Assembly (NCBI GenBank): GCA_028704015.1
Contig: JAQVLT010000001.1
Location: 39,484 to 103,483 of the forward strand
Direction of reading: 5' to 3'
DNA: 64,000 bases
Origin: Patescibacteria group bacterium
Lineage (GTDB): Bacteria > Patescibacteriota > Patescibacteriia > Patescibacteriales > JAQVLT01
The notes beneath the pieces are model-generated. The model saw nothing but the letters and a program-made list of their open reading frames with translations, ran no database searches and was not told the DNA's origin. The translations under genes were made by a program, and so were the position numbers. Within the stretch, counting starts at the first letter, position 1; each line of letters begins with the position of its first letter. Shown piece after piece: positions 2,825 through 59,932 of this stretch.

Positions 2825-5683
2825 TTAAAACTCGCGCATCTCCCCCCAATTATCTCCCACCTTGGCGTCAGCAATGATCTGCACTTTTAACTTAATAACA
2901 TTTTCCATTATCTTTTTGATTTTTTTCTCCATTTCCGAAATCATGTCTTCTTTAATTTCAAACAACAACTCATCATGCACCTGAAGTAGCATCTTTATAT
3001 TTTTTCCGTCGTCTTTCAATCCGTTGATCATCTCATCAATCCTAATCATCGCTACCTTAATAATATCAGCGCAAGTTCCTTGAAGCGGCGCGTTGATGGC
3101 CATGCGCTCAGCGGCTTTGCGCAATTGTACAACCGAAGAATTGATTTCCGGTAGATAGCGCTTGCGTCCAAATAACGTTTCCGTATAGCCGCGTTCGCGC
3201 GCCAATTCAATTGACTCGTCAATGTATTTTTTTACGCCTTGATAAATTTTAAAATAATTTTCAATAAACTCCCGCGCGCGTTCCATGGAAATATCCGCCG
3301 CCTGCGACAAGCCGTATGGACCTTGGCCATAAAGAATGCCGAAATTTATCGCCTTGGCTTCGCGGCGCATTTGTTTGGTCACTTCTTCCAGTTTTACGCC
3401 GTTAATTTCCGCAGCGGTTGCCGTGTGAATATCCAAACCCTGATCAAAAACCGCAATCATTTTTTTGTCGCCGGACAAATGCGCGGCCAGCCGCAATTCA
3501 ATCTGCGAATAATCCAGGCTCAAAAGTTTAAAACCTTTCTCCGTCACAAAAGCGTTTCTGATTTCTCGGCCCAACTCCGTGCGCACGGGGATATTTTGCA
3601 GATTCGGTTCAGTGGAAGAAAGCCGACCGGTTGAAGTAACGGTTTGATTAAAGCTGGTGTGCAGTCGGCCGGTTTTTTTGTTGACCAGCTCCGGCAATGA
3701 ATCAATATAAGTATTGAATAATTTATTCAGCTCGCGATATTCCTGAATTAGAGGAATAATTTCGTGCTCATGTTTTAATTTTTCCAATTCATCGGCCGAG
3801 GTGGAAAAGCCGGTTTTGATTTTGGAAATTCCCAGAGTGGAGATTTCCAATTTTTCAAATAAAATTTCTTTGAGTTGTTGAGTGGAATTAATATTAAATT
3901 TCACGCCCGCCTCATGCCAAATCTTTTTTTCCAATGCCTTAATTTTTTTGTCCACTTTCTCGGCCAAACTCCCCAAAACCTTGGTATTGAGTTTAATACC
4001 ATTGGTTTCCATGTCCGCCAAAACCAGAGCCAAAGGCATTTCAATATCAGCAAATACTTTTTTTAATTTTTCTTTGGTCAATTCTTTTTCCAATTTTATT
4101 TTTAATCTTTGGGTAAAATCCGCGTCTTCGCAAGAATAAAGCGCCAATTTCTCAGTCGGCACTTCACCAAAAGTGATTTTATTTTTTCCCGTGCCTAGAA
4201 GATCATCTTTACTGATTTTTTCAAAACCAAGTTCGCTAAATGTAAGCGCATCCAAATTGTGCTGGCGCGTTCCCGGGTTCAAAAGATAAGAAGCAATCAT
4301 CGTATCAAAATCAACGCCTTGAACCTTAACGCCTTGACTCGCCAAAACTTGCATATCAAATTTAACATTATGTCCGCATTTTTTAATTTTCTCATCTTCA
4401 AAAATTGGTTGTAAACTCTGTAAATAGTAATTAGCAAACAGTAAATAGGGCTTATTTTCTTCTTGTTTATTCTGATAGCTAAACAAATCTAAATTTGTTT
4501 TAATGTTTTCATGTTTTAATGTTTTAATGAAATACGCTTCCCCTTCCTTCCAGCTAAAACTTATTCCCAGTAAATCCGCGGACAATGGATCAAAGCCGGT
4601 AGTCTCCGTGTCAAAAGTAAATTCTTTTTGTTTTTTTAATTCCCGCAAAAATTTTTCAAACTTTTTCTCATCATCAACCAAAATATATTTAAATATCTTT
4701 TTGTTTCGTTCGAACTTGCTGACGTGTGAGTCAGCATCCCGGTCTTCACGCAGTGAAGTACCGGGATTACCCTGAGTCAGCTCCCTCACTCTCGGCAACA
4801 GTGATTTAAACTCCAATTCGCTCAACAACTGCACCAAACGCGCTTGATCAATATTGCCGAACTTCGCTTTTGTTAAATCAAATTCAATCGGCGATTCGCG
4901 GTTAATAGTAGCGAGTTTTTTACTTAGAAAAGCATTTTTCTCATTTAACCTCAACAATTCTAAAATTCGTGGTTTAATTTTACTATTTACTGTTTGCTGT
5001 TTACTATTTACTGCTTTATAAATTTTTTCCAAACTCCCAAACTCTTTTAACAATTCAATCGCTGTTTTCTCGCCAATGCCTTTGACGCCGGGAATATTAT
5101 CGCTCGGATCGCCGCGCAAACCTTTGTAGTCAATCATTTGGTCGGGACCAAGTCCGTTGAATCGCTCCCGCACCATTTTTTCATCATAAATTACACTGTC
5201 CGACAACCCACGGCTCATCGTATAAACCTTGGTATGCTCATCCACTAATTGCAATGTATCCAAATCTCCAGTCACGATAATACTTTCTACTTTCAACTTT
5301 CTACTTTCTACTTTTCGCGAGACTGTTCCAATCAAATCGTCCGCCTCAAACCCTTCTTTTTCAAATACCGGAATCCCGAGCGCCTCTGCGATTTCTCGCA
5401 CCCGCGGAATTTGCGAATATAATTCGTCAGGCGCTTTGACGCGCGTCGCCTTGTAGTCTTTGTATTCCAAATGCCTAAAAGTCGGACCTTTTTTGTCCAA
5501 AGTCAAAACCACGTAATCCGGCTTGAATTCTTTGAGCGCCTTGAACAAAACCATCACAAAACCGTAAACCGCATTAGTCGTTTCTCCTGATTTTGTCCGC
5601 ATAGTTGGCGGCAAAGCGTGAAAACTGCGATGAATTATCGCATTGCCATCAATTATTATAAGTTTTTCTTTGCTATCAGCCAT
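2825..5683 (-). CDS. polA: DNA polymerase I (5'-nuclease, 3'-5' exonuclease-like and polymerase domains)
   Basis: 952 aa: LIIIDGNAIIHRSFHA, GVKGIGEKTA, DYSQIELRLAAHLS, QVHDELLFE. Confidence 0.95.
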   Translation of the reverse strand: MADSKEKLIIIDGNAIIHRSFHALPPTMRTKSGETTNAVYGFVMVLFKALKEFKPDYVVLTLDKKGPTFRHLEYKDYKATRVKAPDELYSQIPRVREIAEALGIPVFEKEGFEADDLIGTVSRKVESRKLKVESIIVTGDLDTLQLVDEHTKVYTMSRGLSDSVIYDEKMVRERFNGLGPDQMIDYKGLRGDPSDNIPGVKGIGEKTAIELLKEFGSLEKIYKAVNSKQQTVNSKIKPRILELLRLNEKNAFLSKKLATINRESPIEFDLTKAKFGNIDQARLVQLLSELEFKSLLPRVRELTQGNPGTSLREDRDADSHVSKFERNKKIFKYILVDDEKKFEKFLRELKKQKEFTFDTETTGFDPLSADLLGISFSWKEGEAYFIKTLKHENIKTNLDLFSYQNKQEENKPYLLFANYYLQSLQPIFEDEKIKKCGHNVKFDMQVLASQGVKVQGVDFDTMIASYLLNPGTRQHNLDALTFSELGFEKISKDDLLGTGKNKITFGEVPTEKLALYSCEDADFTQRLKIKLEKELTKEKLKKVFADIEMPLALVLADMETNGIKLNTKVLGSLAEKVDKKIKALEKKIWHEAGVKFNINSTQQLKEILFEKLEISTLGISKIKTGFSTSADELEKLKHEHEIIPLIQEYRELNKLFNTYIDSLPELVNKKTGRLHTSFNQTVTSTGRLSSTEPNLQNIPVRTELGREIRNAFVTEKGFKLLSLDYSQIELRLAAHLSGDKKMIAVFDQGLDIHTATAAEINGVKLEEVTKQMRREAKAINFGILYGQGPYGLSQAADISMERAREFIENYFKIYQGVKKYIDESIELARERGYTETLFGRKRYLPEINSSVVQLRKAAERMAINAPLQGTCADIIKVAMIRIDEMINGLKDDGKNIKMLLQVHDELLFEIKEDMISEMEKKIKKIMENVIKLKVQIIADAKVGDNWGEMREF

Positions 5684-5783: not shown

Positions 5784-6569
5784 TCAGAAAACGACAGTAC
5801 GAGCCCGCAGCCAAGCGTCGACGCTGGAAGTGCTCTTGGGCTTTATCATTACTTCCTTAGTTCCAGAGTCAAAATAGACAATAAATGTATCGTCTCCGCA
5901 ATAACGTGAACCAGCACAAAGCGTCCAGCTCTCACAAACATCCAGATGCTCACCCGGATTAATCAGGCAGGAATAAAGTACCTCGAGAAGAATGCGCTCC
6001 TTTAAGGTAATCACTTCCTGACCAAGGCGATCCAAATCATTAGCTGATTTGTTAGCTAATTCCAGATCAGCCTCAACGGCATTGACAACAGCCTTAATCC
6101 AAAGAGCATAAGGCCTGTAAAGAGCCTTACGTTGTTCCCTTTCGTGATTAATCACATCTCCCAAAATATGATAGTGTTCACGATACTGTATCCGAATGCG
6201 CAATTCCTGGCGAAGCATCCAGATAAGCCTCTGATAATTCAAGTCAGGAGCAACGACAACCAGCCACCAATCGCCTGCTGGTTTTGGAGGAATCGTGAAC
6301 GTTGTAAGGTTAATCCCTATGCCTTTCCCCGCGTAGAAGTCTTGCCACCATCTTAGATAGTCAGGCAATCCTTGAATTGCTTCCAGTGTTGCGCCTGACA
6401 AAGAATAAATGGCATTGCGGATCGCTTTGGCTATGTTCCTGCGGCCAAGCCGTTTGAGCTGGTCAAAATTTAAACCGAGGAGAGTCTCCTTTGCTACGCC
6501 CGTAATCATTGAAGACATTTCCACCACTTTTTCTTCCATTACCGTTTGAATATTATTTTTATCTTTCAT
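5784..6569 (-). CDS. hypothetical protein (GC-rich ORFan cassette)
   Basis: 261-aa ORF with an ATG start. AAAGGA-type SD upstream and its own terminator. Visibly GC-richer than its neighbours; no motif recognised. Confidence 0.5.
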   Translation of the reverse strand: MKDKNNIQTVMEEKVVEMSSMITGVAKETLLGLNFDQLKRLGRRNIAKAIRNAIYSLSGATLEAIQGLPDYLRWWQDFYAGKGIGINLTTFTIPPKPAGDWWLVVVAPDLNYQRLIWMLRQELRIRIQYREHYHILGDVINHEREQRKALYRPYALWIKAVVNAVEADLELANKSANDLDRLGQEVITLKERILLEVLYSCLINPGEHLDVCESWTLCAGSRYCGDDTFIVYFDSGTKEVMIKPKSTSSVDAWLRARTVVF

Positions 6570-12438: not shown

Positions 12439-14268
12439 CTATACTTTAATCGTTACTGGCAGAACCATCGGCCGTCTTTTTGTTTTATTGAATAAAAATT
12501 GTCCAATATCATCGCGGATTTTATTTTTTACCATATCCACGCCTGCTTTATTCATAGTATCGTTATCCTTTACAATCTTTTTTACTTTCATTCTAGTTTC
12601 TTCAATCAAGTCTTTATTCTCTTTCATATAAACAAAACCACGCGAAATAATATCTGGATTGCCAATTGGATCGCCGGTTTTAGAATCAATCGTCGCAATA
12701 ATTACGATCATTCCGTCCTCCGCCATCACCCGCCGATCACGTAAAACGATATTAGAAACATCACCTACGCCCAAACCGTCAACCATAACATAATCAGAAA
12801 TTAATTTTTCTTTTGTCAATTGCCCGACTGTTCCACTTGGTGTTTTTTTAAACTCTACCACCTGCCCATTGTCAGCTACAAAAATTTTTTCTGGAGTAAT
12901 ACCAACTTGCTCCGCTAAATCAGCATGCGCTTGAAGCATATAATGATTAGCTTCAATTGGCATAAAATACTCCGGCTTCAAAAGCCGCATCATTAATTTC
13001 AAATCTTCTTGTTTAGCATGTCCTCCTGCATGAACATCCATCATTTCATAATGAATGATTTTGGCGCCCTGTCTAACTATCATATCTTTTAAATTTTGAA
13101 TAGTGCGCTCATTGCCGGGAATTACCGAGGAGGAAAAAATAACCGTATCTCCTTTTTTTAAACTTAATGAGCGATGTTCTCCGCTTACTACTCTCTTAAG
13201 AAAAGCGTTAGCTTCACCCTGCGCCCCGGTACCAACTATAATCAATTTTTCATCCGGTAATTTTCTCACCTCATTGTCCTCAACTAAAATTTTCGGATTA
13301 AATTTCAAATAGCCGATTTGGTGCGCTATTTCCACATTGTCGTTCATTGAACGGCCTTGCAGGAGCAATCTTCGATTATATTTCGCCGCTAAATCAAAAA
13401 TCTTTTGAACACGTGAAAGTTGAGAAGCAAAAGTTCCAATAATAATACGCCCAGTACTTTTTTCAAAAATCTTTCCCAATTCATCTCCAATAGACGACTC
13501 AGAAATTTGGTATCCAATATGTGTAGCATCGGTGGAATCAGACATTAGAAACAACACGCCTTGTCCTCCGAGCTGCGCAATACGATTCAAATCCGCCGGC
13601 TTATCATTTACCGGTGAATAATCAATTTTAAAATCTCCAGTATGAATAATAGACCCTAATGGCGTACGAATAACCACGGCAAAACAATCGGGAATAGAAT
13701 GATTAACGCGCAAAAATTCTATACGAAAATTTTTACCCAATTGGACTGATGATTTTTCATCAATTTCGGAAATGTTTAATCGCGGGCATTTTCTAAATTC
13801 TTCACAACGTTTTTTAACCAAACCTGCAGTTAATTTACCCATAAACATCGGCGGATTTCCGATTTCTCCCATAATATGAGGGATACCGCCAATATGGTCC
13901 ATATGCCCATGAGTTATAATAACGCCCCTGATTCTATCTTTTTTGTCTTGTAAATAATTTATATTGGGAATGATATAATCAATTCCCGGCATATCTTCTT
14001 CTGGAAATTGCAAGCCCAAGTCAATAATGATAATATCATCGCCAAACTCAATGATAGTCATATTACGGCCTACTTCCTCAAGCCCGCCCATAACCATTAC
14101 TCTTAATGTTTCTTCTCCGCTCGTCCGGCCGACAATCGATGTCGGCGTTGTTGTTCGTCTGGCGAAACCAACTTGCGGTTGACCATGTCTAAAACGCCTC
14201 GGCGCCATTCGACGGTCAGAACCGCTTAAATATCTTTTTCTTGTTTCTGATGTGTATTTTGTAATCAT
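12439..14268 (-). CDS. rnj: ribonuclease J (metallo-beta-lactamase/beta-CASP RNase)
   Basis: HGHMDHIGG motif and overall RNase J layout. Carries a ~50-aa Arg-rich N-terminal extension. Confidence 0.9.
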   Translation of the reverse strand: MITKYTSETRKRYLSGSDRRMAPRRFRHGQPQVGFARRTTTPTSIVGRTSGEETLRVMVMGGLEEVGRNMTIIEFGDDIIIIDLGLQFPEEDMPGIDYIIPNINYLQDKKDRIRGVIITHGHMDHIGGIPHIMGEIGNPPMFMGKLTAGLVKKRCEEFRKCPRLNISEIDEKSSVQLGKNFRIEFLRVNHSIPDCFAVVIRTPLGSIIHTGDFKIDYSPVNDKPADLNRIAQLGGQGVLFLMSDSTDATHIGYQISESSIGDELGKIFEKSTGRIIIGTFASQLSRVQKIFDLAAKYNRRLLLQGRSMNDNVEIAHQIGYLKFNPKILVEDNEVRKLPDEKLIIVGTGAQGEANAFLKRVVSGEHRSLSLKKGDTVIFSSSVIPGNERTIQNLKDMIVRQGAKIIHYEMMDVHAGGHAKQEDLKLMMRLLKPEYFMPIEANHYMLQAHADLAEQVGITPEKIFVADNGQVVEFKKTPSGTVGQLTKEKLISDYVMVDGLGVGDVSNIVLRDRRVMAEDGMIVIIATIDSKTGDPIGNPDIISRGFVYMKENKDLIEETRMKVKKIVKDNDTMNKAGVDMVKNKIRDDIGQFLFNKTKRRPMVLPVTIKV

Positions 14269-21554: not shown

Positions 21555-21640
21555 ATTATCTTGTAATATTTAATCAAATAATTAGTAAAAATTGGCGCGA
21601 AGAATTCGGCATGAATTACTGCCGCGCCATAACCAAGCGG

Positions 21641-21841
21641 TTATTCGGTGATACAACCGCGTGGCACAGAAAAATCTCCCCCTTCGGGAGTACGTATTCG
21701 AAGATTGCCGCTGGCCTCCCAACGGACAATTTCCCCGCAACGATCTACTCCGTCAGGCAGACGGAATGAGATTTCTGCGCCAGTCTTAATAACGATGCCC
21801 GCATGGCCAGTTGCTTGCGCTACTCCTCCTAATGTTTTCAT
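21641..21841 (-). CDS. small hypothetical protein (GC-rich ORFan cassette)
   Basis: ATG at 21841 preceded by GGAAGGGGG. 66 aa; hairpin ggcgcg..cgcgcc downstream. Confidence 0.4.
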   Translation of the reverse strand: MKTLGGVAQATGHAGIVIKTGAEISFRLPDGVDRCGEIVRWEASGNLRIRTPEGGDFSVPRGCITE

Positions 21842-22038
21842 TTTGCCCCCTTCCTCGCTCAAGTGATCATGGCGGTCGATCCCTTGTTCCCCCTAAAAAC
21901 TTAATGAATCTCCTTTTGCCAACCGTACACTAGCAAGTCAGCCGCGCTTGGCAAATATAGTACAAACATGACTAACTTTCCAATTTTTGGTGTCATTTGA
22001 CCAATTTTTTTTTAAATGTTGACGCGAAATTATTTTTA

Positions 22039-24649: not shown

Positions 24650-25336
24650 TTATTTTTTCACCACTATCATTACTTTTTTCTCGCCTTTTATTGGCGCATG
24701 ATCGCCGGTAGAATAATCGCGAATGGCTTTGAATAATACTTTCTCTTTGTACCTATATTTTTCTCCCCTTCTCGTGCCAGCATCATTTGTAATAAATTCC
24801 TTAGTTTTGTAATCATAGCCGCGAATCAAAACATTATGCCGATCAGGGCCAGGCGCGGTAAAATTCGAATTGCCGAGCTTGCGGCCATTAGCCGGAATAA
24901 TGACCACATTGCCAGCTTCTAATTCTTTGATAATATCTTCCAGCTTAATATCATAAACCACTTCTACATTTTCAAATTTAAAGTAATCATTAAAAATCCG
25001 CTCCACGGTAGTTGAGGCAGAAGTATCCACATAACTACCATATTTTTTCTTTTCATAATCGGCAATGGCAAGAATTTCTTTCTTGGCAATTTCTTTGGTC
25101 AGCTTCTTGCCACGCGCCCAATACACTGCCATTAACGCCGACGCTTCTTCGCACCCATCCTGCTGGCGCTTGTCTTTCCATTCCCCGTACGGCGCCTGGC
25201 TCGTGAACGGAACATTTAATAAAATTGTCTTTTTTACGCTTACAGTTTTTTCCGCCGCCAAAACAAACACGCCAAAGATGAATTGCATGGAAATTAAAAA
25301 TATTACGATAAATATTTTTTGATATTTGTTAAACAT
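24650..25336 (-). CDS. C39-like cysteine peptidase domain protein, secreted
   Basis: Signal/TM segment then LNVPFTSQAPYGEW...DGCEEASALM. ATG at 25336 preferred over the TTG at 25351. Confidence 0.5.
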   Translation of the reverse strand: MFNKYQKIFIVIFLISMQFIFGVFVLAAEKTVSVKKTILLNVPFTSQAPYGEWKDKRQQDGCEEASALMAVYWARGKKLTKEIAKKEILAIADYEKKKYGSYVDTSASTTVERIFNDYFKFENVEVVYDIKLEDIIKELEAGNVVIIPANGRKLGNSNFTAPGPDRHNVLIRGYDYKTKEFITNDAGTRRGEKYRYKEKVLFKAIRDYSTGDHAPIKGEKKVMIVVKK

Positions 25337-25411
25337 TATTATAATTTTCAATTATTAATTTTTAATTTTCAAACAATTTTCAATTTTAAAATATTTAAAA
25401 TTACTATAAAT

Positions 25412-25632
25412 CACCTGGGGTCTGGGGCAAGCCGCCCGCCTTCGTTTCACTACGGACGGGTAAACTGAGCTTGATAGCGCTTGCCCACCGAAGCCGAAGG
25501 CGCAGGCGGGAATCGGCTGCCCCAGGACTTTTGCTTCTGGCGCCTGCCCGCCTCTGGCGAGGTCATAAAAGAAGGCTCCCGGCAGGGAAATCTTTAAAAG
25601 AAGCGCGAACCATCTTCGCGCTTCTTTTTTTG
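25412..25632. repeat. GC-rich noncoding element, copy A (homologous to 51861-52054); candidate structured RNA
   Basis: Shared blocks cacc.ggggt.tgggg, gtgatagcgc, gcttctggcgcctg.ccgcct.tggcg and aagaaggctcccggcaggg. Ends in hairpin gaagcgcgaa/ttcgcgcttc plus a T7 run. Confidence 0.6.
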
Positions 25633-25640
25633 TTTTTCCT

Positions 25641-25847
25641 CTATCTCCTTGCCAATCTCATTGACACTACGGCTAAATAAATGCCCGAGATGCCAACCAA
25701 AGTGTAAATGATGCGCGCTAGAACCGTCATATTGCCGAAAATTGCGGCCACGAGGTCAAAACTAAATATTCCAACCAGAGCCCAATTTAGAGCTCCAATT
25801 ATTACCAAAATTAGAGCTACCCAATCTAATTTAGTTAAATTGTTCAT
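25641..25847 (-). CDS. DUF378-family small membrane protein
   Basis: LDWVALILVIIGALNWALVG. Confidence 0.65.
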   Translation of the reverse strand: MNNLTKLDWVALILVIIGALNWALVGIFSFDLVAAIFGNMTVLARIIYTLVGISGIYLAVVSMRLARR

Positions 25848-34586: not shown

Positions 34587-34944
34587 ACTTTTTATAATTA
34601 AATAAATAAAATTAATTTTTTCCCACGCAAAAGGCCTCCCAACATAGTTTCATTACCCTTTCGGGCAATGGCATAGACAGCAAAAACTAGTCAGGAGACC
34701 ATCTCCGCTGTCTATGTCTTTTTAACCATGCCCAACGCACGTTGGGTTTAGGTCTAAATTTTCTCAAATTAATTATATTATAAAGCTACTGAAAAATAAA
34801 GACCTAATCCAACTTCGCCCCTAAATTAGCCAATTTTTAAAGTTTTCAATGAGCATATAATTTATTACCCGTTTTCCCTGAAAATCTGTCTAAGGGGAGA
34901 TTTTGCGGTTTTAGGGTATTTCTAGACAACGGACTTATAATGCA

Positions 34945-36087
34945 TTATAAGTCGGCGTTGAAAATCCAATTTTCTTCAATAATTTTATTTAACTTGGCAT
35001 TGTAGAATAACAGCTTGCTTTCAGAATTACTATATTCTGGCTTCAAATAATTCGTAATAATTTGATCGCTTTTTAAAAATATGACTTCCGGCCTATACGC
35101 TTTTTTTGCCATATCAATACATTTTTCTAAATTTTCTCGCGAGACTAATTCTGAAGGAATGCGAATTACTGCAAAACCTTCTGTGGTTAGGCATAAATTA
35201 GCTATCCTGTCCCTTTCAATGTTTTCTTCTATTTTTCCATGAAAATATTCGCTGTCTATTTGGAGTATTATTGGATATTTTGCGTCTTTCAAACGTAAAC
35301 AAAAATCAACGATGTACCCAATAAAATATTTTTTGTCTCTAAATATTTTTATTCCGAGCTGTTCCTGAATCATGTCTAGCCCCATTTCTTTAAGCAACTG
35401 CCTAGTTAATATTTCGGCCCGTGTTCTTTTAGGATTTTTTACGCCTGCTTCAATTCTTTTTTCACTTATCTTTAATTTTGTACTTTCCTGGCAAGGGGTG
35501 CCTTTTCTATTTTTTTGTCGATTTGCTTCTCTGAAACAATTCTTTATGTTTTGCCTAGATTTATTTCTTGCGCTTCTTAAAATCGTAAAATTTCTTCTTC
35601 TGATATAGCGAAGCTCTTTGTTTATAGGTATGCCCCTCCTTTTAAATAAACTAGTAACAGCTCCCGCGGTCACGCCAAATCGTTCAGCTATCTGAATAAT
35701 ACTTAACCCCTCTTTTTTATACATTTTTTCTAGCGCTTCTTTTGTTTTTAATTCGGCATTTCCTTTTTTAAATTTTAATTCAGCTGGTTTTTTTATACCA
35801 AATTTTTTTAGTGCTTTATTAATTTTGCTTGCCGATAAATTAAATTCTTTCATAATATCGGGGGCTGTTTTTTTTAGGATAATATAATTTTTTTCTAAAA
35901 ATTCTTTTGTTAAAGGTTTCTGAAATTCAGACTCTCGGCTAAATTCTAGATTTTTAATCTTTTTAATCCCATATTTTTTAAGCTCCTTTTCTATTTCTTT
36001 ACCAGACGCCCCCGTTTCTTCCGATATTTGTTTAATGGTTTTATTTTTATTCAGATAATTCTCTGATAAATACTCTTTGGTAATCAT
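34945..36087 (-). CDS. multi-HTH protein with C-terminal DUF559/Vsr-like PD-(D/E)XK endonuclease domain
   Basis: Three repeats of the I(S/A)E..G.S...I.K.LKK(Y/F)GIKK type, then VDFCL...ILQIDSEYFHG...RDR...GFAVIRIP. Confidence 0.5.
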   Translation of the reverse strand: MITKEYLSENYLNKNKTIKQISEETGASGKEIEKELKKYGIKKIKNLEFSRESEFQKPLTKEFLEKNYIILKKTAPDIMKEFNLSASKINKALKKFGIKKPAELKFKKGNAELKTKEALEKMYKKEGLSIIQIAERFGVTAGAVTSLFKRRGIPINKELRYIRRRNFTILRSARNKSRQNIKNCFREANRQKNRKGTPCQESTKLKISEKRIEAGVKNPKRTRAEILTRQLLKEMGLDMIQEQLGIKIFRDKKYFIGYIVDFCLRLKDAKYPIILQIDSEYFHGKIEENIERDRIANLCLTTEGFAVIRIPSELVSRENLEKCIDMAKKAYRPEVIFLKSDQIITNYLKPEYSNSESKLLFYNAKLNKIIEENWIFNADL

Positions 36088-36136
36088 AGATTTATTTTTG
36101 TTCTTTTCTGAAAAAGCGTGGCATTTTAAGTTATTT

Positions 36137-36820
36137 TTACCGCGTTTTTTCAGAAAAGAACATTGCGTTTAAAATTGTTAAATAGATGACATCTTGGCCA
36201 GCCTTTTGTTCGGTTACGATATAGATGTCAGACACAGTATTACCAGCATAAGTGGTAGTGTCATCGGCGATAGCAAAGGTCGGGATAATTGGCAATTTAC
36301 CTACCATTGATTGATAGAAGTTTACATCAATACCAGTAGATACAGAGTTAGTTTGGTCTAGGTTAACTCTTACATCACCAGCTAAAGACTGATTAATAGC
36401 TCTCTTCATTCCATAGGAACAATAGATAGCAGTCGGTTTAGCATTGTAAGTTTTAACGATATTGGCAATCTCTTTTTCTATTAAATCAGTTCTAAAACCA
36501 AGAGCATTGTTATTATCATCAGTGACGTTAGTGGTGATAAGAGTTTTCAAGCCGTCAAACTGTAATGCAGATACACCAGAGTTACCAGTGATGATGAATT
36601 GCTCTTCGTCTTGGATGGTTTCTCTAATAGCGATTTCAGTTTGCTCTGCTTCTTGGTCCATAAAGGACTTGCCAGCGGCTAACATTCTATCAGTGATAGA
36701 TTTGGTTTTACCCAATTCTTTATACACCGCAGAACGCCTTACATAGGTAGAAGCGCCTTCAGTCGGAGTGCCGCCTTCTGCGAAAGGAGCATTACCTACT
36801 CCGATAGCAGTTAGATTCAA
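36137..36820 (-). pseudogene. fragment of an HK97-fold phage major capsid protein gene
   Basis: No ATG; the track M is a TTG inside a longer frame. FAEGGTPTEG...SITDRML...EQFIITGNS..FDGLKTLIT resembles the middle of a capsid protein. The C-terminus ends in unrelated hairpin sequence. Confidence 0.45.
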
Positions 36821-37036
36821 GGCGGTTCTTTTGGTTTATCGTCTAAAAGGTGAGGATTCTTGCGTATTAATTCGCAAAAGAATTCTGCTAGTTTGTTGAC
36901 TGTCTGCTCGCTATAATTTTCATTTGTTTTTAGATTGTTTAAATTGTTCATTTCCCAAAAATAAAAAATAGTCATTGCAAGACTATTTTAAATTAATGGG
37001 CATTCATAAAATTCATATGATATTCATATGAATCTT

Positions 37037-37732
37037 TTAATGGATATACTTAGGATTTATTCTTACTTTTTTCATATCATATTTAAGAAAATCATTTATA
37101 GCTGTTTCTCTGGCTATGCTTTGATTTATGTTATTTGCTTTACCATTGAAGCGCTTAAGTAGTGATTCCTTTTCTCTTTTTTCGGGTAAGCTAGCATAAT
37201 ACTCAGGTTCCCATTTATTTTGGATGTCTGCGTAAAAGCATTCTTGTTGGGGGTCTTTAAATAGTTCCGCAAGCAAATCATATTGTTTAGATTTTTTTGA
37301 GAAATCAATTTTTTTTCCAGCAAAATATAAAATGTGATTTTTTTCATCAAATCGAGGACTGTGCTTAGTTATAACTGAAGTAGGGTCGTTTTTTTTAATA
37401 AGAACATCATAATTTTTATAAAAATCCTTCGTCAGAATTATATTATAATTTGAATACTCTTTTAAATTTTCAAACGGCATTACAATATCCATCGTGGAAA
37501 AATTTTCTAGCCATTCATCTGAAACCCTAATTTCTTCCTTTATAATATTTTCCTTCTTTAAGTTTCGAATTATATCTTTTAGATACCTTCTCTCTATGTT
37601 TAAATTTTGTAGTAACTCCGGGGTGATTGGAATTATTTTTTTCTCTATTGATGTGCCGATGGTAAATAAGTCAACTTCTTTTTTGAGAAACTTGAGGAAA
37701 ACGCATAAATCTATTTTAATTTCATCTTTCAT
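37037..37732 (-). CDS. hypothetical protein, possible C-terminal OmpR-type winged helix (4th gene of the RT operon)
   Basis: KKIDFSKKSKQYDLLAELFKDPQQECFYADIQNKW resembles trans_reg_C. Its start lies 2 nt after the HNH stop. Confidence 0.4.
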   Translation of the reverse strand: MKDEIKIDLCVFLKFLKKEVDLFTIGTSIEKKIIPITPELLQNLNIERRYLKDIIRNLKKENIIKEEIRVSDEWLENFSTMDIVMPFENLKEYSNYNIILTKDFYKNYDVLIKKNDPTSVITKHSPRFDEKNHILYFAGKKIDFSKKSKQYDLLAELFKDPQQECFYADIQNKWEPEYYASLPEKREKESLLKRFNGKANNINQSIARETAINDFLKYDMKKVRINPKYIH

Positions 37733-37734
37733 AC

Positions 37735-38469
37735 TTATTGAATAGAATTAATTTCACTAAATTTTAATATATAAAAATTGGCAATCATTGAGCCATTTTC
37801 TAAGATACTTCTCCTTCTTTCCATGTCGAACATTATTTTTACAAAAAGATAATTAAACTCAAAAAAAGCAAATTCCTTGTCGTCTTCGCAAGTTCTTATA
37901 AAACGATAACTCATACCAGCTTCTATTGACTTTGAGTTTGATCCTAGTAAAAGATAACCACCAAAATCTTTTTTTCCTAAAATAATATCTCTGATTTCAT
38001 CAAATCTTGGTGATAATGCTAATACGGCGCCATAATCTAAATATATAAGTTCCAAGGCAATTTTATACAACGATCGTGATATTAATTTTAAATTTTTACT
38101 ATCCATTTTTTTCTTTCCGAAAAAATTTAGTTTGCAACCATTTATAGTTTGTGCGAAATCACCTTTATTCTTTCTTTTTAATTTTACTTCTATATCAGCC
38201 CCTGAGGAATTTTTAAAATCAATGGTGCTAAAATTTGCTGTAGGAATCTTGCCAGACTTTGATTTTATGCCATAAATTGTTCTCTGAAACAATATAGGGT
38301 CAAAATTTACTAAAATACTATCTAATAATGATAAAGTTTCATTATTACATTTGTCGCATACTACTCCTTTAGGTAAAATTTTTTCTTTATTTCCTAAGGA
38401 TTCTGGAAAAATATGCTCTACGCTTGAGAATAAATTTTTTGTGTTTTTGCAAAATAAACAAATCCCCAT
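37735..38469 (-). CDS. HNH endonuclease domain protein (3rd gene of the RT operon)
   Basis: CLFCKN...SVEHIFPESLGN...VVCDKCNN at the N-terminus. Confidence 0.7.
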   Translation of the reverse strand: MGICLFCKNTKNLFSSVEHIFPESLGNKEKILPKGVVCDKCNNETLSLLDSILVNFDPILFQRTIYGIKSKSGKIPTANFSTIDFKNSSGADIEVKLKRKNKGDFAQTINGCKLNFFGKKKMDSKNLKLISRSLYKIALELIYLDYGAVLALSPRFDEIRDIILGKKDFGGYLLLGSNSKSIEAGMSYRFIRTCEDDKEFAFFEFNYLFVKIMFDMERRRSILENGSMIANFYILKFSEINSIQ

Positions 38470-38493
38470 AGATTTATAGTATATTTTTGTTAT

Positions 38494-39579
38494 TTATTTT
38501 CCCCTAACTAGGTCTATTTCTGCCTGAATTTGTTTGTCCAAATCTCTAGCTGCTTCCTCAAAAACGTCAGAAATCATCTTTAGTTCTGTCATGATTGTGA
38601 TATATTTTTCTAAGGCTTTACTTTCAGAAAGATTTGTGATCAGGTTCGCCTGATTATTTATTTCCGATATTCTACTCTTATTAATTTTTTTCCAATTATT
38701 TTTATATTTCAAAAATAATTCTTTATATTTTTTTTCTCCACTGAGCTTGTCTTCTTCAAAAACCCTTATCTCTTTCTTGTTTATTATGTGGAATGAATAG
38801 TAAAGGCAGTATTCATTAAATTTCCAATTTTTGGCATACGGGAAAAAGATGGAAAAGTCTTTTTTTATAAAGGATATATTCTTTCTGGTTCTTTTTAGAT
38901 TTCTTTTTATATTTTCTTTTAATAATGCTTGAATATTTTTTTCTCTTTTATCAATAAAATTAAAGAATCTTTTAAAAAAATATTGCCATTCTTCTTTAGT
39001 ATTGCTATTAAACCAAGCAGAATCTCTCTGCCTTTTCCGCACAAAGGGGTCAAAATTTTTTCCTTTTAAGGAAGTTATGCCTAACCCATTGCCCCACAAT
39101 ACTTTATTTTTTGTGATTATGTTATGTAATAAGATTAAACTTATTTTAACTAATAGTTTATCTTCGTCTATCGTATGGTAAAGGTTATTTCTGACGTTGT
39201 GACAAAAGGCAATTTTTTGTTTTTCTTCCTGCGTAATAATTAATTCTTTAACGCAAGTTTTTAATAACTCTCCATGATAACATATAATTTTTTCTCTATC
39301 CTTCTGTTTATATTTTTTGTGCAAAATATAACTTAATCCGTCTCTGAAAAGTATAGCATCCATTAATGTCCTTAATTGAATTTCAATAAAATTATCCAGC
39401 AAGATAACTGCCAATCTTTGATATGCGAAATCTTTTATTCTGCCAAACCTTGAGGCTTCATTTAATTGTATTTTTAACAAAACAGTTCGCTCCATAATAA
39501 AATAAATAATTATTTTTGAAAAAGTTCTATATAGCGCTGGTGTAGTGAAGAAATATTCATTTTTGTAATTGGCAAACAA
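38494..39579 (-). CDS. HEPN-type (Rx4H; AbiD/AbiF-like) predicted RNase (2nd gene of the RT operon)
   Basis: Codons 39192-39175 read R-N-N-L-Y-H (CHNVRNNLYHT) in an alpha-helical protein. Start is TTG at 39579 or ATG at 39495. Confidence 0.55.
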   Translation of the reverse strand: MFANYKNEYFFTTPALYRTFSKIIIYFIMERTVLLKIQLNEASRFGRIKDFAYQRLAVILLDNFIEIQLRTLMDAILFRDGLSYILHKKYKQKDREKIICYHGELLKTCVKELIITQEEKQKIAFCHNVRNNLYHTIDEDKLLVKISLILLHNIITKNKVLWGNGLGITSLKGKNFDPFVRKRQRDSAWFNSNTKEEWQYFFKRFFNFIDKREKNIQALLKENIKRNLKRTRKNISFIKKDFSIFFPYAKNWKFNEYCLYYSFHIINKKEIRVFEEDKLSGEKKYKELFLKYKNNWKKINKSRISEINNQANLITNLSESKALEKYITIMTELKMISDVFEEAARDLDKQIQAEIDLVRGK

Positions 39580-39618
39580 ATAGTACGGTTCATTTAATTA
39601 AGCTCTGAAAATCACTAT

Positions 39619-41031
39619 TTATCTTATATATTGTTTAGGATAAAAGTTCGTTTTTAGATAAACCAATCTTTTTTCTATATGAGTACAATTTAAATTTAAT
39701 TTTTTATAAAATTTTAATAGGGTGTAATGATAATTGTTATGAATCAATTCGTCTGATAATTTATTAAGAAAATTAATAAATTTTATTCTCTCTCGGTTGT
39801 TAAGGTTGTTGTATATTTTTTCTAAATGCCAAGCTTTAATTTTTTGCGATTGTATAAACTTGGGTTTTAGAAATTCGTAGAATAACTTTTTAACTTTTTC
39901 GTGCTGATTTTTAGAGGTAATTAAATTTAATAACCTTATCATTAGTGAGGAGCCATCATTTTTAAGCCCCTCCTTATTTTCTAAAAGAAAATCTATGGCG
40001 TCGTCTACTATTAAATGGTTTCTCTCAGACAGAAGTAAGTGCCATTGGAATGCCATATATTGCTCAAAGTCTTTTTTGTCTTTTATATCAACTTTTTTTT
40101 GATTAATGCATAGCCCATATTGCGTTAGTGACAAAGAAGCTAAATATGCTATCTCAGCCAAATCATTTTTTGATTTTGCAAAGATTATCTGGTCGTCAGC
40201 AAATCTTAGATATTTAGCTTGGTATCTTTCACATATTGCCAACATTTGATGATCATAGTCTTGCAAATAAAAATTCGCTAATATTCTAGAGCAATCTGCT
40301 ATTTCATCTTGGGGAATGCCAACGCTTTGTTGACTGTAAAAATTATAATCCCTATTCCAAAATTTTAAAAAGTGAAAAAGTAAACTAATCACATCGTTTT
40401 GCTCTGAAGGGCAAATGCCTCTTATTTTATCTTCTAACACATCAAGTCTAATTGAATCATAAAAATTGGCAATGTCCATCTCTAAAACGTAATTATGTTT
40501 ATTTGCCTTACACGAATGAACGTATACATTATTTGTAAATTCTCCCCATGCCGCCCTCCATGCGTTTGGGTTGAATGATGTTTCCATAGGGTATTCTTCT
40601 GACATGTCTAAAGTGACAATGTCGCCGTTCGGCATTTCGTATGACTTAAACGTTTGATTGTAATATTCTATTTCTTCTCGTTCTTGAGTGCGAATTTGTC
40701 CCCCAAGCTTCCATCCACCGTAGGTGCCAGGAGCCCTATTTCCTGATATATAATTCTCTAGCTTCTTAATACAATAAAAGTAAACACAAGTATCTCGGGG
40801 TGTAAATACTGGCACTATTCTAGAAATTGAATTCCCCTTATTAAATATAATATAACTTCTTGGTTTCTCGGGATAATAAGTTTTTTCAACTATTGAGGAA
40901 TGTAAATCACGCAAGAGTTCACGTTTATTATAGTCTTGCTCTATCGGGCAGAGGGTTTCTTTATTAATTTTTTTCCAAAACTGGCTAGTATTAACTGAAA
41001 AAATTTTATAAAAATTTTCAAAACTTTCCAT
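39619..41031 (-). CDS. reverse transcriptase, non-intron Abi/UG-like, with helical C-terminal domain (1st gene of the operon)
   Basis: RT motifs RIVPVFTPRDTCVY, MDIANFYDSI, GIPQDEIADCSRILANFYL, YLRFADDQIIF (FADD codons 40192-40203), GLCINQKK. ATG at 41031 (GTG at 41052 possible). Confidence 0.85.
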   Translation of the reverse strand: MESFENFYKIFSVNTSQFWKKINKETLCPIEQDYNKRELLRDLHSSIVEKTYYPEKPRSYIIFNKGNSISRIVPVFTPRDTCVYFYCIKKLENYISGNRAPGTYGGWKLGGQIRTQEREEIEYYNQTFKSYEMPNGDIVTLDMSEEYPMETSFNPNAWRAAWGEFTNNVYVHSCKANKHNYVLEMDIANFYDSIRLDVLEDKIRGICPSEQNDVISLLFHFLKFWNRDYNFYSQQSVGIPQDEIADCSRILANFYLQDYDHQMLAICERYQAKYLRFADDQIIFAKSKNDLAEIAYLASLSLTQYGLCINQKKVDIKDKKDFEQYMAFQWHLLLSERNHLIVDDAIDFLLENKEGLKNDGSSLMIRLLNLITSKNQHEKVKKLFYEFLKPKFIQSQKIKAWHLEKIYNNLNNRERIKFINFLNKLSDELIHNNYHYTLLKFYKKLNLNCTHIEKRLVYLKTNFYPKQYIR

Positions 41032-41153
41032 CGTGTTGGCGAAAATTAGCACGCGGTAGTGGTTGCCACGTCTAAATTATAATTAGTCAATTCTGCTTTT
41101 AATTTTGCACCTTTTATTATTAAAGTCAACTGTAAATTAGATTTTTACATATT

Positions 41154-41178
41154 GCAAAAACACCCCCGAAAAGGTGTT
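41154..41178 (-). terminator. rho-independent terminator separating ORF 41215-42150 from the RT operon
   Basis: aacacc/ggtgtt stem followed by a T-run on the minus strand. Confidence 0.6.
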
Positions 41179-41214
41179 CTTAATGTCGGTAGATTACAGA
41201 TAGAGCGAGTTCAA

Positions 41215-42150
41215 CTAGAACTCCATTTGTTTTGGTTTTTCAAACGGCATGTATTCTGTAACCAACTTAATAGAATAAGAAGATGCGATTTTATTGTTGG
41301 AGTCCTTTTTTTGCTTTATTTCTAAATCAACTTTTAAAACATCCTCCGCGTAAAGTCTGATTTCTCCGCTGTGTAATTTTTTTAAAAATACTTCATCATC
41401 AATAGTTACTGGCCATAAGACATTATTATCTCCCATAATAAAAGAATATGCTTTTTCTTCGCCAGAATAAGAACCTCGTTTTGGTTTTAAATAAATATTT
41501 TTCAAAATTGAAATATTATCTTCAGTTTCTTCTGATAATTCCGTGTGTGCATATTTTTCAATAAACTCAATATCTTCTTTTTTAATAATTTGCTCAGTGC
41601 TATCTTTCGCAGTTATTTTAAAGCTTACCTCGGTAGTTGCTGGAAATTTGCTAAACGGTGCAACCGTGCAATTGTAATAATTGTTTTGCACCAAAGGAGA
41701 TTGGACTAGCTTGTGTTCAGCCATGCTAACTTCCAACTTTTCACCAGTTGGAGAGATATAAGTTATTGTCTCACCATTATCTTTTCTTTCAAAATTTGAA
41801 ACTATACCCCTGGTGAATTGTATGATTTTAATTAAGCCCGTAACTCCTTCTTTTGCATTCAATCCCAAAAACGATAGAAGAAGCATTAAGCTTTGCCCAT
41901 CATCATCTTTGAGATAGTTTAATAAATGAGGTACCTGTGAATGCTGAATAACAAAATCAGTTATCCAAGAACCTTCTCTGAATGGCTTAACTTTAACATC
42001 TATTTTTTGTTCGAACCCAAGAATGTTGTTTGCAGAACGAATAAGTTCGCCAAAATGCATTAAAACGGGTGCTATTTCAAAAACATCAACGCCGTCATCG
42101 GCATTAATTCCATTCAGTTTATATATTATTTGAGTTTTTGAAATTTTCAT
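41215..42150 (-). CDS. hypothetical protein (island gene, own transcription unit)
   Basis: 311-aa ORF from ATG at 42150 (MKISKTQ...); no motif recognised. Confidence 0.45.
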   Translation of the reverse strand: MKISKTQIIYKLNGINADDGVDVFEIAPVLMHFGELIRSANNILGFEQKIDVKVKPFREGSWITDFVIQHSQVPHLLNYLKDDDGQSLMLLLSFLGLNAKEGVTGLIKIIQFTRGIVSNFERKDNGETITYISPTGEKLEVSMAEHKLVQSPLVQNNYYNCTVAPFSKFPATTEVSFKITAKDSTEQIIKKEDIEFIEKYAHTELSEETEDNISILKNIYLKPKRGSYSGEEKAYSFIMGDNNVLWPVTIDDEVFLKKLHSGEIRLYAEDVLKVDLEIKQKKDSNNKIASSYSIKLVTEYMPFEKPKQMEF

Positions 42151-42270
42151 ATTCAAATATATTATAACATATAACTAAATGAATAGCACTGGCGAAAACA
42201 AAATTTTTTAAGAGAAACACAATTTTTTATTTAATTAATAATTTTAAAGTAAACCAGTTTGTATAATACT

Positions 42271-43161: not shown

Positions 43162-43233
43162 TACGCCCGGGGGGAATCGAACCCTCATAACCAGCTTAGA
43201 AGGCTGGTGTTCTATCCATTGAACTACGGGCGC
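43162..43233 (-). tRNA. tRNA-Arg (anticodon UCU)
   Basis: Acceptor GCGCCCG/CGGGCGT, anticodon loop CTTCTAA, GGTTCGATTCC. Confidence 0.85.
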
Positions 43234-43257: not shown

Positions 43258-43334
43258 AACCCTCATAATCCCGCCGAGGCGGGACTGGTGTTCCCTGCCT
43301 GCCGGCAGGCAGGTATCCATTGAACTACGGGCGC
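43258..43334 (-). pseudogene. decayed tRNA-Arg copy carrying two GC palindromes
   Basis: GCGCCCGTAGTTCAATGGATA-[cctgcctgccggcaggcagg]-GAACACCAG-[tcccgcctcggcggga]-TTATGAGGGTT. Confidence 0.75.
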
Positions 43335-43554
43335 AATAAATAATAGTCCCGATTATTCGGGACGATTATAATTTAACAGAAATAATGAAGAAAGTCAACC
43401 AAAACGTTAAAAATTTTTAATTTCCAATTTTTAATTTTTAAATAATATCTTAATTTTTAATTATAAAATATTAGAAATTATTATATTTATAAATTATTTA
43501 AAAATTAAAAATTACAAAATTTAAAAATTCTATACTGTTTTTTGATATTATAAG

Positions 43555-50343: not shown

Positions 50344-50363
50344 CCTGCCTGCCGGCAGGCAGG
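50344..50363. repeat. perfect 20-nt palindrome cctgcctgccggcaggcagg
   Basis: Identical 20-mer at 43294-43313 and 52009-52028. Confidence 0.95.
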
Positions 50364-51661: not shown

Positions 51662-51860
51662 ACAAAAATAATGCAAATCTACAAATTAAATTCAAATTCC
51701 GCGAATAACGCAAAAGTGAATAAAAATCATTTATAGATTTGTAAATTAATTTTGAGTTAAAAAAAAATCTAATGAATTTCATTATAATTTTACTATTCGC
51801 TTGCCCAGGTGTCAATCTTGAAAAATACAAGAATTTAAAAATATAAAAATATTTAAAAAT

Positions 51861-52054
51861 CACCATGGGGTTTGGGGGCCGAACTAAGCGCCAAGGAAAA
51901 TGTTACCCAAAAGATTAATCAACGTGATAGCGCATTGAGGCCCCCAAAACTTTCCCGCCAAAGGCGGGCAAGTGCTTCTGGCGCCTGTCCGCCTTTGGCG
52001 GAGTTACACCTGCCTGCCGGCAGGCAGGAAAGAAGGCTCCCGGCAGGGGAAATT
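51861..52054. repeat. GC-rich noncoding element, copy B (homologous to 25412-25632), containing the 20-nt palindrome
   Basis: Same conserved blocks as copy A, with helix gtttgggggcc/ggcccccaaac. Lies between divergent polyamine genes. Confidence 0.6.
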
Positions 52055-52204
52055 TTATTGCATTATTTTATTATAAGATTTAAACAAACTTAATACTTAA
52101 AATAGTCTAATATTAAATAAAATTATTTAACTAGCATTAAAATGCTAAAAATATTGTCATTTTCGGTAAAGGTGTTAGAATAAAATTAATATTAATCAAA
52201 CATT

Positions 52205-58342: not shown

Positions 58343-59826
<1,484 letters not shown>

Positions 59827-59932
59827 GTATTGAAAGTTTTTATACTTTCAATTTTTGAGTTTTATAGCTCTTAGCAAATTTTTTAAAAAAACTTGCAAAA
59901 AATATTTGAAGAAATAAATCTTCTATAATTAG

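Follow-up and report, generated by a model that had tools for sequence, protein, structure and literature searches.

A small family of structured noncoding elements, candidate small RNA genes, in a patescibacterial genome

The window examined here is a 64,000-nucleotide (nt) stretch of contig JAQVLT010000001.1 (assembly GCA_028704015.1), which comes from a Patescibacteria metagenome-assembled genome (MAG) and has a GC content of 37%. Two intergenic sites in the window, copies A and B, belong to a small family of structured noncoding elements that is new and is explained by no curated family. The elements are roughly 160-200 bases in size and are built of hairpins. It is proposed, with a probability of about 0.5, that the copies are independently transcribed genes for small structured RNAs. 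This reading is based on a promoter-like box that stands at a fixed position in front of every copy, on a helix (P2) that stays complementary across unrelated inserts, and on the near-identity of copy B to a homolog in another organism. A selfish palindromic repeat, a riboswitch-like leader and a transposon-end remnant are weighed below against the evidence that bears on each.

Copies A and B share ordered blocks and match no known RNA

Copy A extends from 25408 to 25592 and is followed by a hairpin and T-run at 25596-25632, and copy B extends from 51857 to 52054. Both are islands of 57-64% GC within AT-rich gene gaps. The original prediction described ordered blocks common to 25412-25632 and 51861-52054, and both block scans and BLASTN agree with it. 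The common order is AAATCACC, one or two nucleotides and GGGGTYTGGGG; TGATAGCGC; the 27-nt block GCTTCTGGCGCCTGYCCGCCTYTGGCG; and AAAGAAGGCTCCCGGCAGGG. The 27-nt GCTTCTGGCGCCTGYCCGCCTYTGGCG and the 19-nt AAGAAGGCTCCCGGCAGGG each occur exactly twice in the 64 kb, even when up to three mismatches are allowed, and no match to either is expected from shuffled sequence. When copy A was compared with the window by BLASTN, copy B was recovered in collinear blocks (E values of 1e-6 and 6e-5), and the column identity of the two copies is 74%. Blocks 3 and 4 are separated by 9 nt in copy A and by 29 nt in copy B, a difference of 20 nt, and the open reading frames (ORFs) drawn through the two elements have no frame in common, as had been noted. 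Translated-frame searches of the elements returned nothing relevant.

None of the 4227 curated families of Rfam 15 matches copy A or copy B at the gathering threshold, and relaxing the threshold to E<=10 gave only unrelated weak matches, mostly at the terminator; the L153 homolog described below has no match at gathering either. The earlier description of a nonstandard element, either a structured RNA family or a nonautonomous GC-rich element, thus stands. ARAGORN detected no tRNA or transfer-messenger RNA (tmRNA) gene in 25300-25700, and no paper containing the conserved 14-mers was found in the literature searched by sequence string. Divergent forms of 5S RNA, signal recognition particle RNA, RNase P RNA, tmRNA and the glmS ribozyme were considered and rejected, as they offered short resemblances by eye without model support.

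Further members of the family

A covariance model (R1) was built from A, B and L153 (L-numbers are labels of surveyed loci). The family has further members: the search with a covariance model that the original prediction had proposed identified copy C, synteny provided L153, and a pattern scan perhaps provided L161. Copy C (L290:14023-14181; 77 bits, E 2e-22) lies in this same genome, ~2.8 kb ahead of the window start; its neighbours are the rnhB terminator and the convergent gene holA. R1 gave no other convincing match in 319 kb comprising the window, relatives from the candidate phyla radiation (CPR) and other loci (~345 kb of surveyed sequence in all), and the best of the remaining matches had an E value of 0.048. 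There are therefore three copies in the ~74 kb surveyed of this genome; they are 65-85% alike, and all lie on the + strand of the window, opposing the direction of most genes.

L153 was found by walking the NusA neighbourhoods of ten relatives, Falkowbacteria being among the nearest, in search of GC islands; the walk gave no other homolog. The element (L153:13200-13418, - strand) lies on a Joint Genome Institute (JGI) contig between the DHH and trigger-factor genes. Copy B and L153 are identical at 35 of 36 positions over part of the element, whereas the NusA proteins of the two organisms are only 71% identical. Neutral sites between these organisms must be saturated, and this near-identity requires either selection or recent transfer. 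In the window, no copy is found at the corresponding site between the trigger-factor and DHH genes; a third window copy between tig and DHH was considered and rejected, as this gap holds a small ORF. Within this 545-nt gap, an ORF of apparently ~65 amino acids was read by eye at ~21640-21845 on the - strand, with a good ribosome-binding site (MKTLGGVAQATGHAG...).

L161 (1691-1895) may be a distant relative. It was obtained when IMG/VR was scanned for the exact pattern of the 5' block, the other matches being five chance ones, and lies on a phage-like contig of 27% GC in a 470-nt gene gap that starts with ATCACCTAGGGGTTTGGGGC. Its layout, ATCACC-TA-GGGGTTTGGGGC...GCCCCAA followed by UUACCUUUUGU...ACAAAAGGUAA, resembles that of the copies in size and in having helices like P1 and P2. 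R1 gives it no score.

Predicted fold and orientation

All copies have the same layout, in which a leader is followed by the P1 rod, a U-rich linker and the P2 rod. The minimum free energy and centroid folds both consist of the P1 rod and separate 3' hairpins, with folding z-scores of -4.2 for A, -4.5 for B, -3.7 for C and -6.6 for L153. The P1 rod is closed by GGGGUYUGGGG/CCCCARRAC. The original prediction described this long-range helix as covarying between A and B; pairing is indeed kept, and the covariation itself is thin. True double changes occur at only two homologous positions (C-G to U-A and C-G to G-C), and the rest of the difference reflects an altered helix extension. At one further position U.G is found against U-A, and L153 has one A.C mismatch.

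P2 combines a pyrimidine 5' strand with a purine 3' strand. Its arms are GCUUCU/AGAAGGC in A and B, GGUUACUUUUG/CAAAAGUAACC in C, UUACUUUCUUG/CAAGAAAGUAA in L153 and UUACCUUUUGU/ACAAAAGGUAA in L161. The enclosing stem CTTCT/AGAAG noted earlier does exist and is the same in A and B, so that these two copies provide no covariation for it; the compensated form, of the UUACUUUUG/CAAAAGUAA type, is seen in C, L153 and L161. Overall, P2 has three to four compensated differences, and complementarity is kept across inserts of 25-75 nt.

Helices P1 and P2 are retained through sequence change. The covariation, two positions in P1 and three to four in P2 over four to five sequences, is suggestive; MAFFT alignments of the copies are too unreliable for pair counting. 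The constrained parts of the element are the helix bases, the linker and the block GCCUGYCCGCCUYUGGCGGRGUYAYA, and the apical parts are exchanged between copies.

The orientation of the element had been left open, and now leans to the + strand because a -10 box precedes every copy, copy C has a promoter that scores 10/12, the + strand fold is 4-5 kcal/mol more stable than the - strand fold in each CPR copy, and the closing pair of the small 3' hairpin P3 varies between U-A, U-G and C-G. The predicted features are collected in Table 1.

Table 1. Predicted features of copies A and B and of the flanking promoters and terminator (window coordinates).
Feature	Coordinates	Strand	Remarks
Copy A, -10-like box TATAAAT against conserved CACC (promoter/discriminator or 5' leader)	25405..25416	+	AAATCACC conserved in A, B, C, L153
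Copy A, core, predicted RNA body, GGGG... to P3 and AAAUC	25417..25592	+	161 bits with R1
Copy A, P1 5' arm CUGGGGCAAGCCG	25422..25434	+	pairs with 25514-25525
Copy A, apical module (hairpin-X), CCCGCC-UUCGUUUCACUAC-GGACGGG-UAAACU	25435..25466	+	
Copy A, conserved block UGAUAGCGC within P1 rod	25472..25480	+	
Copy A, P1 3' arm CGGCUGCCCCAG	25514..25525	+	
Copy A, block 3: P2 5' arm GCUUCU (25533-25538), then GGCGCCUGCCCGCCUCUGGCG	25533..25559	+	
Copy A, 3' module: P2 3' arm AGAAGGC (25570-25576), P3 UCCC-GGCA-GGGA (25577-25588)	25568..25588	+	also in other phyla
Bidirectional intrinsic terminator, copy A (+) and DUF378 (-)	25596..25632	both	14 pairs, T-run; DUF378 stop 25641
Copy B, leader AAATCACC, preceded by A/T-rich -10-like TAAAAAT	51857..51866	+	
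Copy B, core element	51867..52054	+	175 bits with R1
Copy B, P1 5' arm GUUUGGGGGCC	51870..51880	+	pairs with 51939-51950
Copy B, P1 3' arm GGCCCCCAAAAC	51939..51950	+	
Copy B, extra arm CCCGCCAAAGGCGGGCA	51954..51970	+	long hairpin with block 3; also in L153, not A
Copy B, block 3	51974..52000	+	
20-nt perfect palindrome CCTGCCTGCCGGCAGGCAGG inside copy B P2 interior	52009..52028	unstranded	absent here in A, L153
Copy B, 3' module: P2 3' arm 52031-52037; P3 52038-52049, U.G closing pair	52029..52049	+	
Promoter of carboxynorspermidine dehydrogenase-like operon, TTGACA-17-TAAAAT, 11/12	51787..51815	-	between copy B and that gene
Agmatinase promoter	52154..52181	+	downstream of copy B; conserved in relative L123

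Transcription signals and gene context

In every copy, an A/T-rich hexamer ending in AAT directly abuts CACC: TATAAAT in A, TAAAAAT in B and TAAAAT in both C and L153. The most complete promoter is that of copy C, TTAACA-17-TAAAAT (10/12), which ends exactly at CACC. A candidate sigma-54 promoter in block 3 was dropped since its spacing is off by one. Copy A ends in a strong hairpin with a T-run, as had been noted, and the suggestion that this could be the terminator of the DUF378 gene on the other strand also holds: the stop codon of DUF378, which converges on copy A, is 9 nt away from the 14-bp hairpin, and the hairpin serves both directions.

The position of copy B, between a carboxynorspermidine dehydrogenase/decarboxylase operon and an agmatinase gene, raises the question of whether the element is a riboswitch-like cis-regulatory leader of polyamine genes, and in L161 the AUCACCU leader is able to pair with the Shine-Dalgarno sequence of the gene that follows, which encodes a DUF5659 protein. 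The promoters of the two polyamine loci contradict this explanation. Because both stand between copy B and the genes, the copy lies in neither flanking 5' untranslated region. In L123, the closest relative (77% agmatinase identity), the same divergent gene pair and the agmatinase promoter are conserved across a 160-nt gap that contains no element; ten P0005 loci also lack it. Furthermore, copies A, C and L153 have no downstream gene in the same orientation, each being directed at the 3' end of a convergent gene. Regulation of polyamine genes in cis is therefore highly improbable.

If the copies are RNA genes, each would encode a structured RNA of ~150-220 nt whose transcription probably starts in the G-run after the -10/CACC junction. 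The RNA would consist of two long irregular hairpins joined by the U-rich linker, with apical parts that are free and exchangeable. In copies A and B, the 3' module (GCUUC...GAAGGC, then UCCC-GGCA-GGGR) could serve as a docking site for a widely conserved protein or ribonucleoprotein (RNP), and the RNA would act in trans as a scaffold or decoy and not by pairing with mRNA. Within the RNA-gene reading, this role for the 3' module is perhaps the case and is doubtful. That the elements are transcribed, where the RNAs begin and end, and what they might bind are predictions made from sequence.

Several observations weigh against the RNA-gene reading. The promoter scan gave no full + strand sigma-70 promoter for A or B, and the -35 regions of A and L153 are poor by eye. 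No canonical terminator was found in B, C or L153, and that of copy A is shared with DUF378. The positions of the copies are non-syntenic between relatives, and the agmatinase gap of L123 is empty. The counts of G.U versus A.C in the CPR helices are mixed and point clearly to neither strand; the two single changes in L153 are A.C on the + strand. Three copies per ~74 kb hints at a high copy number, and the combinatorial mosaics described in the next section are seen more often in recombining repeats than in paralogous RNA genes. Finally, the docking partner of the 3' module is entirely hypothetical.

Mosaic composition and a free-standing palindrome

The copies differ by exchange of whole segments. 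The P1 interior is of two unrelated types, one in B and C and the other in A and L153, whereas the P2 types group A with B and C with L153. The extra arm CCCGCCAAAGGCGGGCA is found in B and L153 only, and it is in this stretch that the two agree at 35 of 36 positions. Within P2, block 3 is present in A, B and L153, a 20-nt palindrome occupies C, and B has both.

The palindrome, CCTGCCTGCCGGCAGGCAGG (family D20), is perfect, is centred on CCGG and also occurs free-standing in AT-rich gaps. It is found three times in the window (43294-43313, 50344-50363 and 52009-52028), near the L153 element (L153:13509) and at L150:209, and a variant with one mismatch makes up the whole P2 interior of copy C (L290:~14073-14092, - strand). 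It may act as an operator site or a terminator, or may be a small mobile GC cluster. One window site lies in a partial second copy (43258-43340) of the adjacent tRNA gene (43162-43233, - strand), where the palindrome splits the duplicate between gtgttc and tatcc without a target duplication and TCCCGCCGAGGCGGGA stands in place of the anticodon arm. This is the locus of the weak R1 match mentioned above.

These features are the basis for a second explanation, in which the element is a selfish, nonautonomous, modular GC-rich palindromic repeat whose helices arose from palindromes inserting into the centres of palindromes, transcription being incidental. The 20-nt unit, which repeats independently elsewhere, makes up the B-specific insert, and it has interrupted an RNA gene copy at the tRNA duplicate. 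When its interior is removed, copy B P1 is itself a perfect palindrome, GTTTGGGGGCC joined to GGCCCCCAAAC, centred on CCGG like the 20-mer. The mosaic composition, the non-syntenic positions with a site that is empty in the closest relative, and the density of copies on one strand would all fit a repeat. The 3' module is multi-copy and partly tandem in a Clostridiales MAG, and an 8-bp direct repeat, GACGTTAA, flanks the L153 copy.

Other properties are not those of a mobile repeat. Terminal inverted repeats of the kind found in miniature inverted-repeat transposable elements (MITEs) are lacking, since the ends AAATCACC.GGGG... and ...GGCAGGGAAAT (or ...AAAGTAACC) are not mutual inverts. No convincing target duplications were found at A, B or C; the direct repeats near A and B are AT-rich 7-mers that are expected by chance, and the empty site of L123 is too diverged to help with this question. 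Despite a column identity of only 74%, A and B keep the same order and the non-palindromic blocks AAATCACC, UGAUAGCGC and GGUUACA. The promoter stands at a fixed position, and differing P2 arms stay complementary across the inserts. There is no transposase in the 30 ORFs of the window that were scanned or beside the module copies elsewhere, and neither the phage and plasmid collections nor IMG/VR contain the element. A purely selfish repeat is the main alternative and is considered less likely than the RNA-gene reading. The RNA-gene and repeat readings are compatible, as a mobile small RNA (sRNA) cassette would fit both.

A 3' module shared with RNAs of other phyla

Uncurated RNAs from Bacteroidota, Clostridia and Gammaproteobacteria contain the same 3' block as copies A and B (UGCUUC-hairpin-GAAGGCUCCCGGCAGGG). 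The module is ~35-60 nt long and consists of GCUUC, a variable hairpin and GAAG-G-C, followed by the UCCC-GGCA-GGGR hairpin. Its carriers have the form (U)UUUGCUUC, variable hairpin, GAAGGCUCCCGGCAGGG(R)AA, located after a long rod-like hairpin, and their upstream scaffolds are unrelated. A block of 17-20 nt is identical in four phyla. The nine-base context TTTTGCTTC is expected by chance about once per 3,000 loci, and it was found in at least four independent lineages. A genome scan with the 17-mer GAAGGCTCCCGGCAGGG gives a lower bound on the phylogenetic breadth; no CPR genome is among the matches listed, and many matches are chance ones in GC-rich coding DNA. A metagenome scan with the 20-mer of the 3' block recovered no CPR copies; this pattern lies outside the family core, for which the 5' block or GCCTGYCCGCCTYTGGCGG is the better pattern. 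The module was absent from phage, plasmid and IMG/VR collections in BLAST and pattern scans, and a relaxed module pattern gave 120 matches in IMG/VR, none of which has a module-like 3' tail.

One carrier is an RNA of ~250 nt from Prolixibacteraceae, in which the module is located at the 3' end (L049:6705-6960 and L100:3730-3975, both on the - strand, and L137, L139, L140, L142, L144 and L146). Its fold combines a long-range rod with two hairpins on the 3' side, and an AU-rich terminator is often present. Compensatory changes are found at 13 of its 68 predicted pairs, and many G.U pairs occur on this strand. Double changes were counted at 11 pairs compared with 3.6 in shuffles and 1-3 in slid controls, in a test that used a structure string one column off for helices 8 and 9, for which the count of 13 of 68 is valid. 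The Prolixibacteraceae RNA is a bona fide structured RNA.

A gut Bacteroides MAG (L086) has a minimal form, UGCUUCGCGAUGAAGGCUCCCGGCAGGGAA, and the Oscillospiraceae MAG L062 also carries the module. The Clostridiales MAG SIG370 has at least five copies of a GC-rich unit of ~227 nt, two pairs of which are tandem with a 227-nt period and some of which lie beside tRNA genes (L061:7400-8000, L065:5400-6080 and L016:6300-6530, all on the - strand); each unit ends in the GAAGGCUCCCGGCAGGG module. In the Clostridiales variant GAUGGCCCCCGGCAGGGG the P3 closing pair changes from U-A to C-G. In Granulosicoccaceae, three copies in two MAGs are among the matches listed (L003:~1100-1500 and L111:~3600-4000 on the - strand, L114:~620-900 on the + strand). 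They form a conserved noncoding element with the module in its middle, and two copies in one MAG differ by an insertion of ~95 nt. Rfam gave no match for the carriers L049/L100, L139 and L114 at gathering or at E<=1. The Prolixibacteraceae, Clostridia, Bacteroides and Granulosicoccaceae elements have a 3' module identical to that of A and B on scaffolds that are unrelated to the CPR elements.

Since copies C and L153 lack the module, it is considered an add-on and not part of the core of the CPR family. Tentatively, the 3' block may be an RNA module in its own right that is carried across phyla on unrelated scaffolds, such as a new small ribozyme, a ligand aptamer or a site at which a universally conserved protein docks, and the CPR elements would then be the carriers of one lineage.

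It was also considered whether the copies are remnants of transposon-end RNAs, either the omega-RNA of IS200/IS605 TnpB or palindrome-associated transposable elements (PATE), or the bridge RNA of IS110, or are the RNA of a nearby reverse transcriptase (RT). In every lineage the sequence beyond the abrupt end of the 3' block is unrelated. Hairpin-X of copy A is found on both sides of the module RNA of Tangfeifania (L049), in direct orientation, and nowhere else among the surveyed loci; L153 has a stretch related to it. The flanking sequences in question, L049:7128-7172 and 6515-6560 (- strand), are two hairpins of ~55 nt (TTGGTTNACCCGCC...GGTTCGTTTCACTCACGGGATAAACTTCT) that match the apical hairpin of copy A in the loop and on the 3' side. 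A UG13b-class RT is encoded at 39619-41049 of the window. These observations are outweighed by the lack of any tnpA, tnpB, iscB or IS110 gene near any copy, near the ~15 module loci or in the 30 window ORFs, and by the lack of a match to the Rfam HEARO and IS605-orfB models. Copies A, B and C have no matching end hairpins, so that the two L049 copies of hairpin-X are the only hint, and C and L153 lack the 3' block. The RT is 11-14 kb from A and B, and no template/variable repeat (TR/VR)-type repeats were found in the 33-43.5 kb region around it. An origin from transposon-end or RT-associated RNA is thus improbable.

Comparison with known systems

GC-rich islands in the AT-rich intergenic regions of bacteria have yielded orphan structured noncoding RNA motifs by the GC-rich intergenic region (GC-IGR)/DIMPL approach of the Breaker laboratory, for example raiA and LOOT (PMC8632094, PMC11109978, PMC8723152). 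The CPR elements resemble such candidates in that they are noncoding islands of 57-64% GC in a 37% GC genome, with several helices, their own promoter and no obvious gene association. They differ in having only four to five members and in their swapped apical regions, one of which is a free-standing genomic palindrome.

Repetitive extragenic palindromic (REP) sequences are short palindromes of 20-40 nt that have a GTAG or CGTC tag and an associated RAYT gene. Like REP sequences (reviewed in PMC3733652), bacterial interspersed mosaic elements (BIMEs), Rickettsia palindromic elements and mitochondrial GC clusters, the units described here are GC-rich palindromes in an AT-rich reduced genome, with nested insertion, insertion in an RNA gene copy and patchy lineage-specific presence. 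The element differs from them in its much greater length, in the invariant order of its non-palindromic blocks, in the constant position of its promoter and in a divergence between copies that far exceeds that of typical repeats. The 20-nt palindrome has no GTAG or CGTC tag, GTAG being found only inside the L153 interior, and no Y1 transposase or RAYT was found in the 30 window ORFs scanned. The family has no consistent tag, and its copies number three in the ~74 kb surveyed.

The 6S RNA is a single long rod with a large central bubble, and paralog pairs occur, such as 6S-1 and 6S-2 of B. subtilis. The elements are similar to such pairs in their length of ~200 nt, high degree of structure, own promoter and presence as more than one diverged copy per genome. 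They are distinguished from 6S RNA by the absence of an Rfam 6S match, by the failure of the 5' and 3' ends to form a single rod around a central bubble, and by 3' 70 nt that form separate hairpins.

Other features of the window

The genes of the window are also found on contig JAQWAV010000004.1 of assembly GCA_028707515.1. In the window, the Rfam scan detected a 16S rRNA gene, tmRNA, tRNAs and a LOOT RNA. The 16S rRNA gene lies at 58344-59827, and the rRNA genes appear to be unlinked in this genome, since 23S and 5S have no match anywhere in the 64 kb. A - strand island at 34641-42153, next to tRNA genes, looks like a defence island or a prophage remnant. It holds the LOOT RNA (RF03000, 62 bits), a helix-turn-helix (HTH) protein, an SU10 major-capsid-like protein (36137-36817), an HNH endonuclease (37735-38466), the UG13b-class RT mentioned above (PADLOC E 7e-133) and a PDC-S42-like protein (41215-42153).

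Significance

Patescibacteria have tiny genomes in which very few regulatory RNAs are known. If the RNA-gene reading is true, this multi-copy RNA family with its own promoters would be among the first lineage-specific sRNA families in Patescibacteria. Its constant helix bases bear apical inserts, one of which is a palindrome that lives freely in the genome, and this modularity may illustrate how reduced, AT-rich genomes build and remodel structured RNAs. The cross-phylum block of 17-20 nt at the end of otherwise unrelated RNAs is a lead to a new conserved RNA motif, and one of its carriers is a named type-strain isolate, Tangfeifania diversioriginum DSM 27063.

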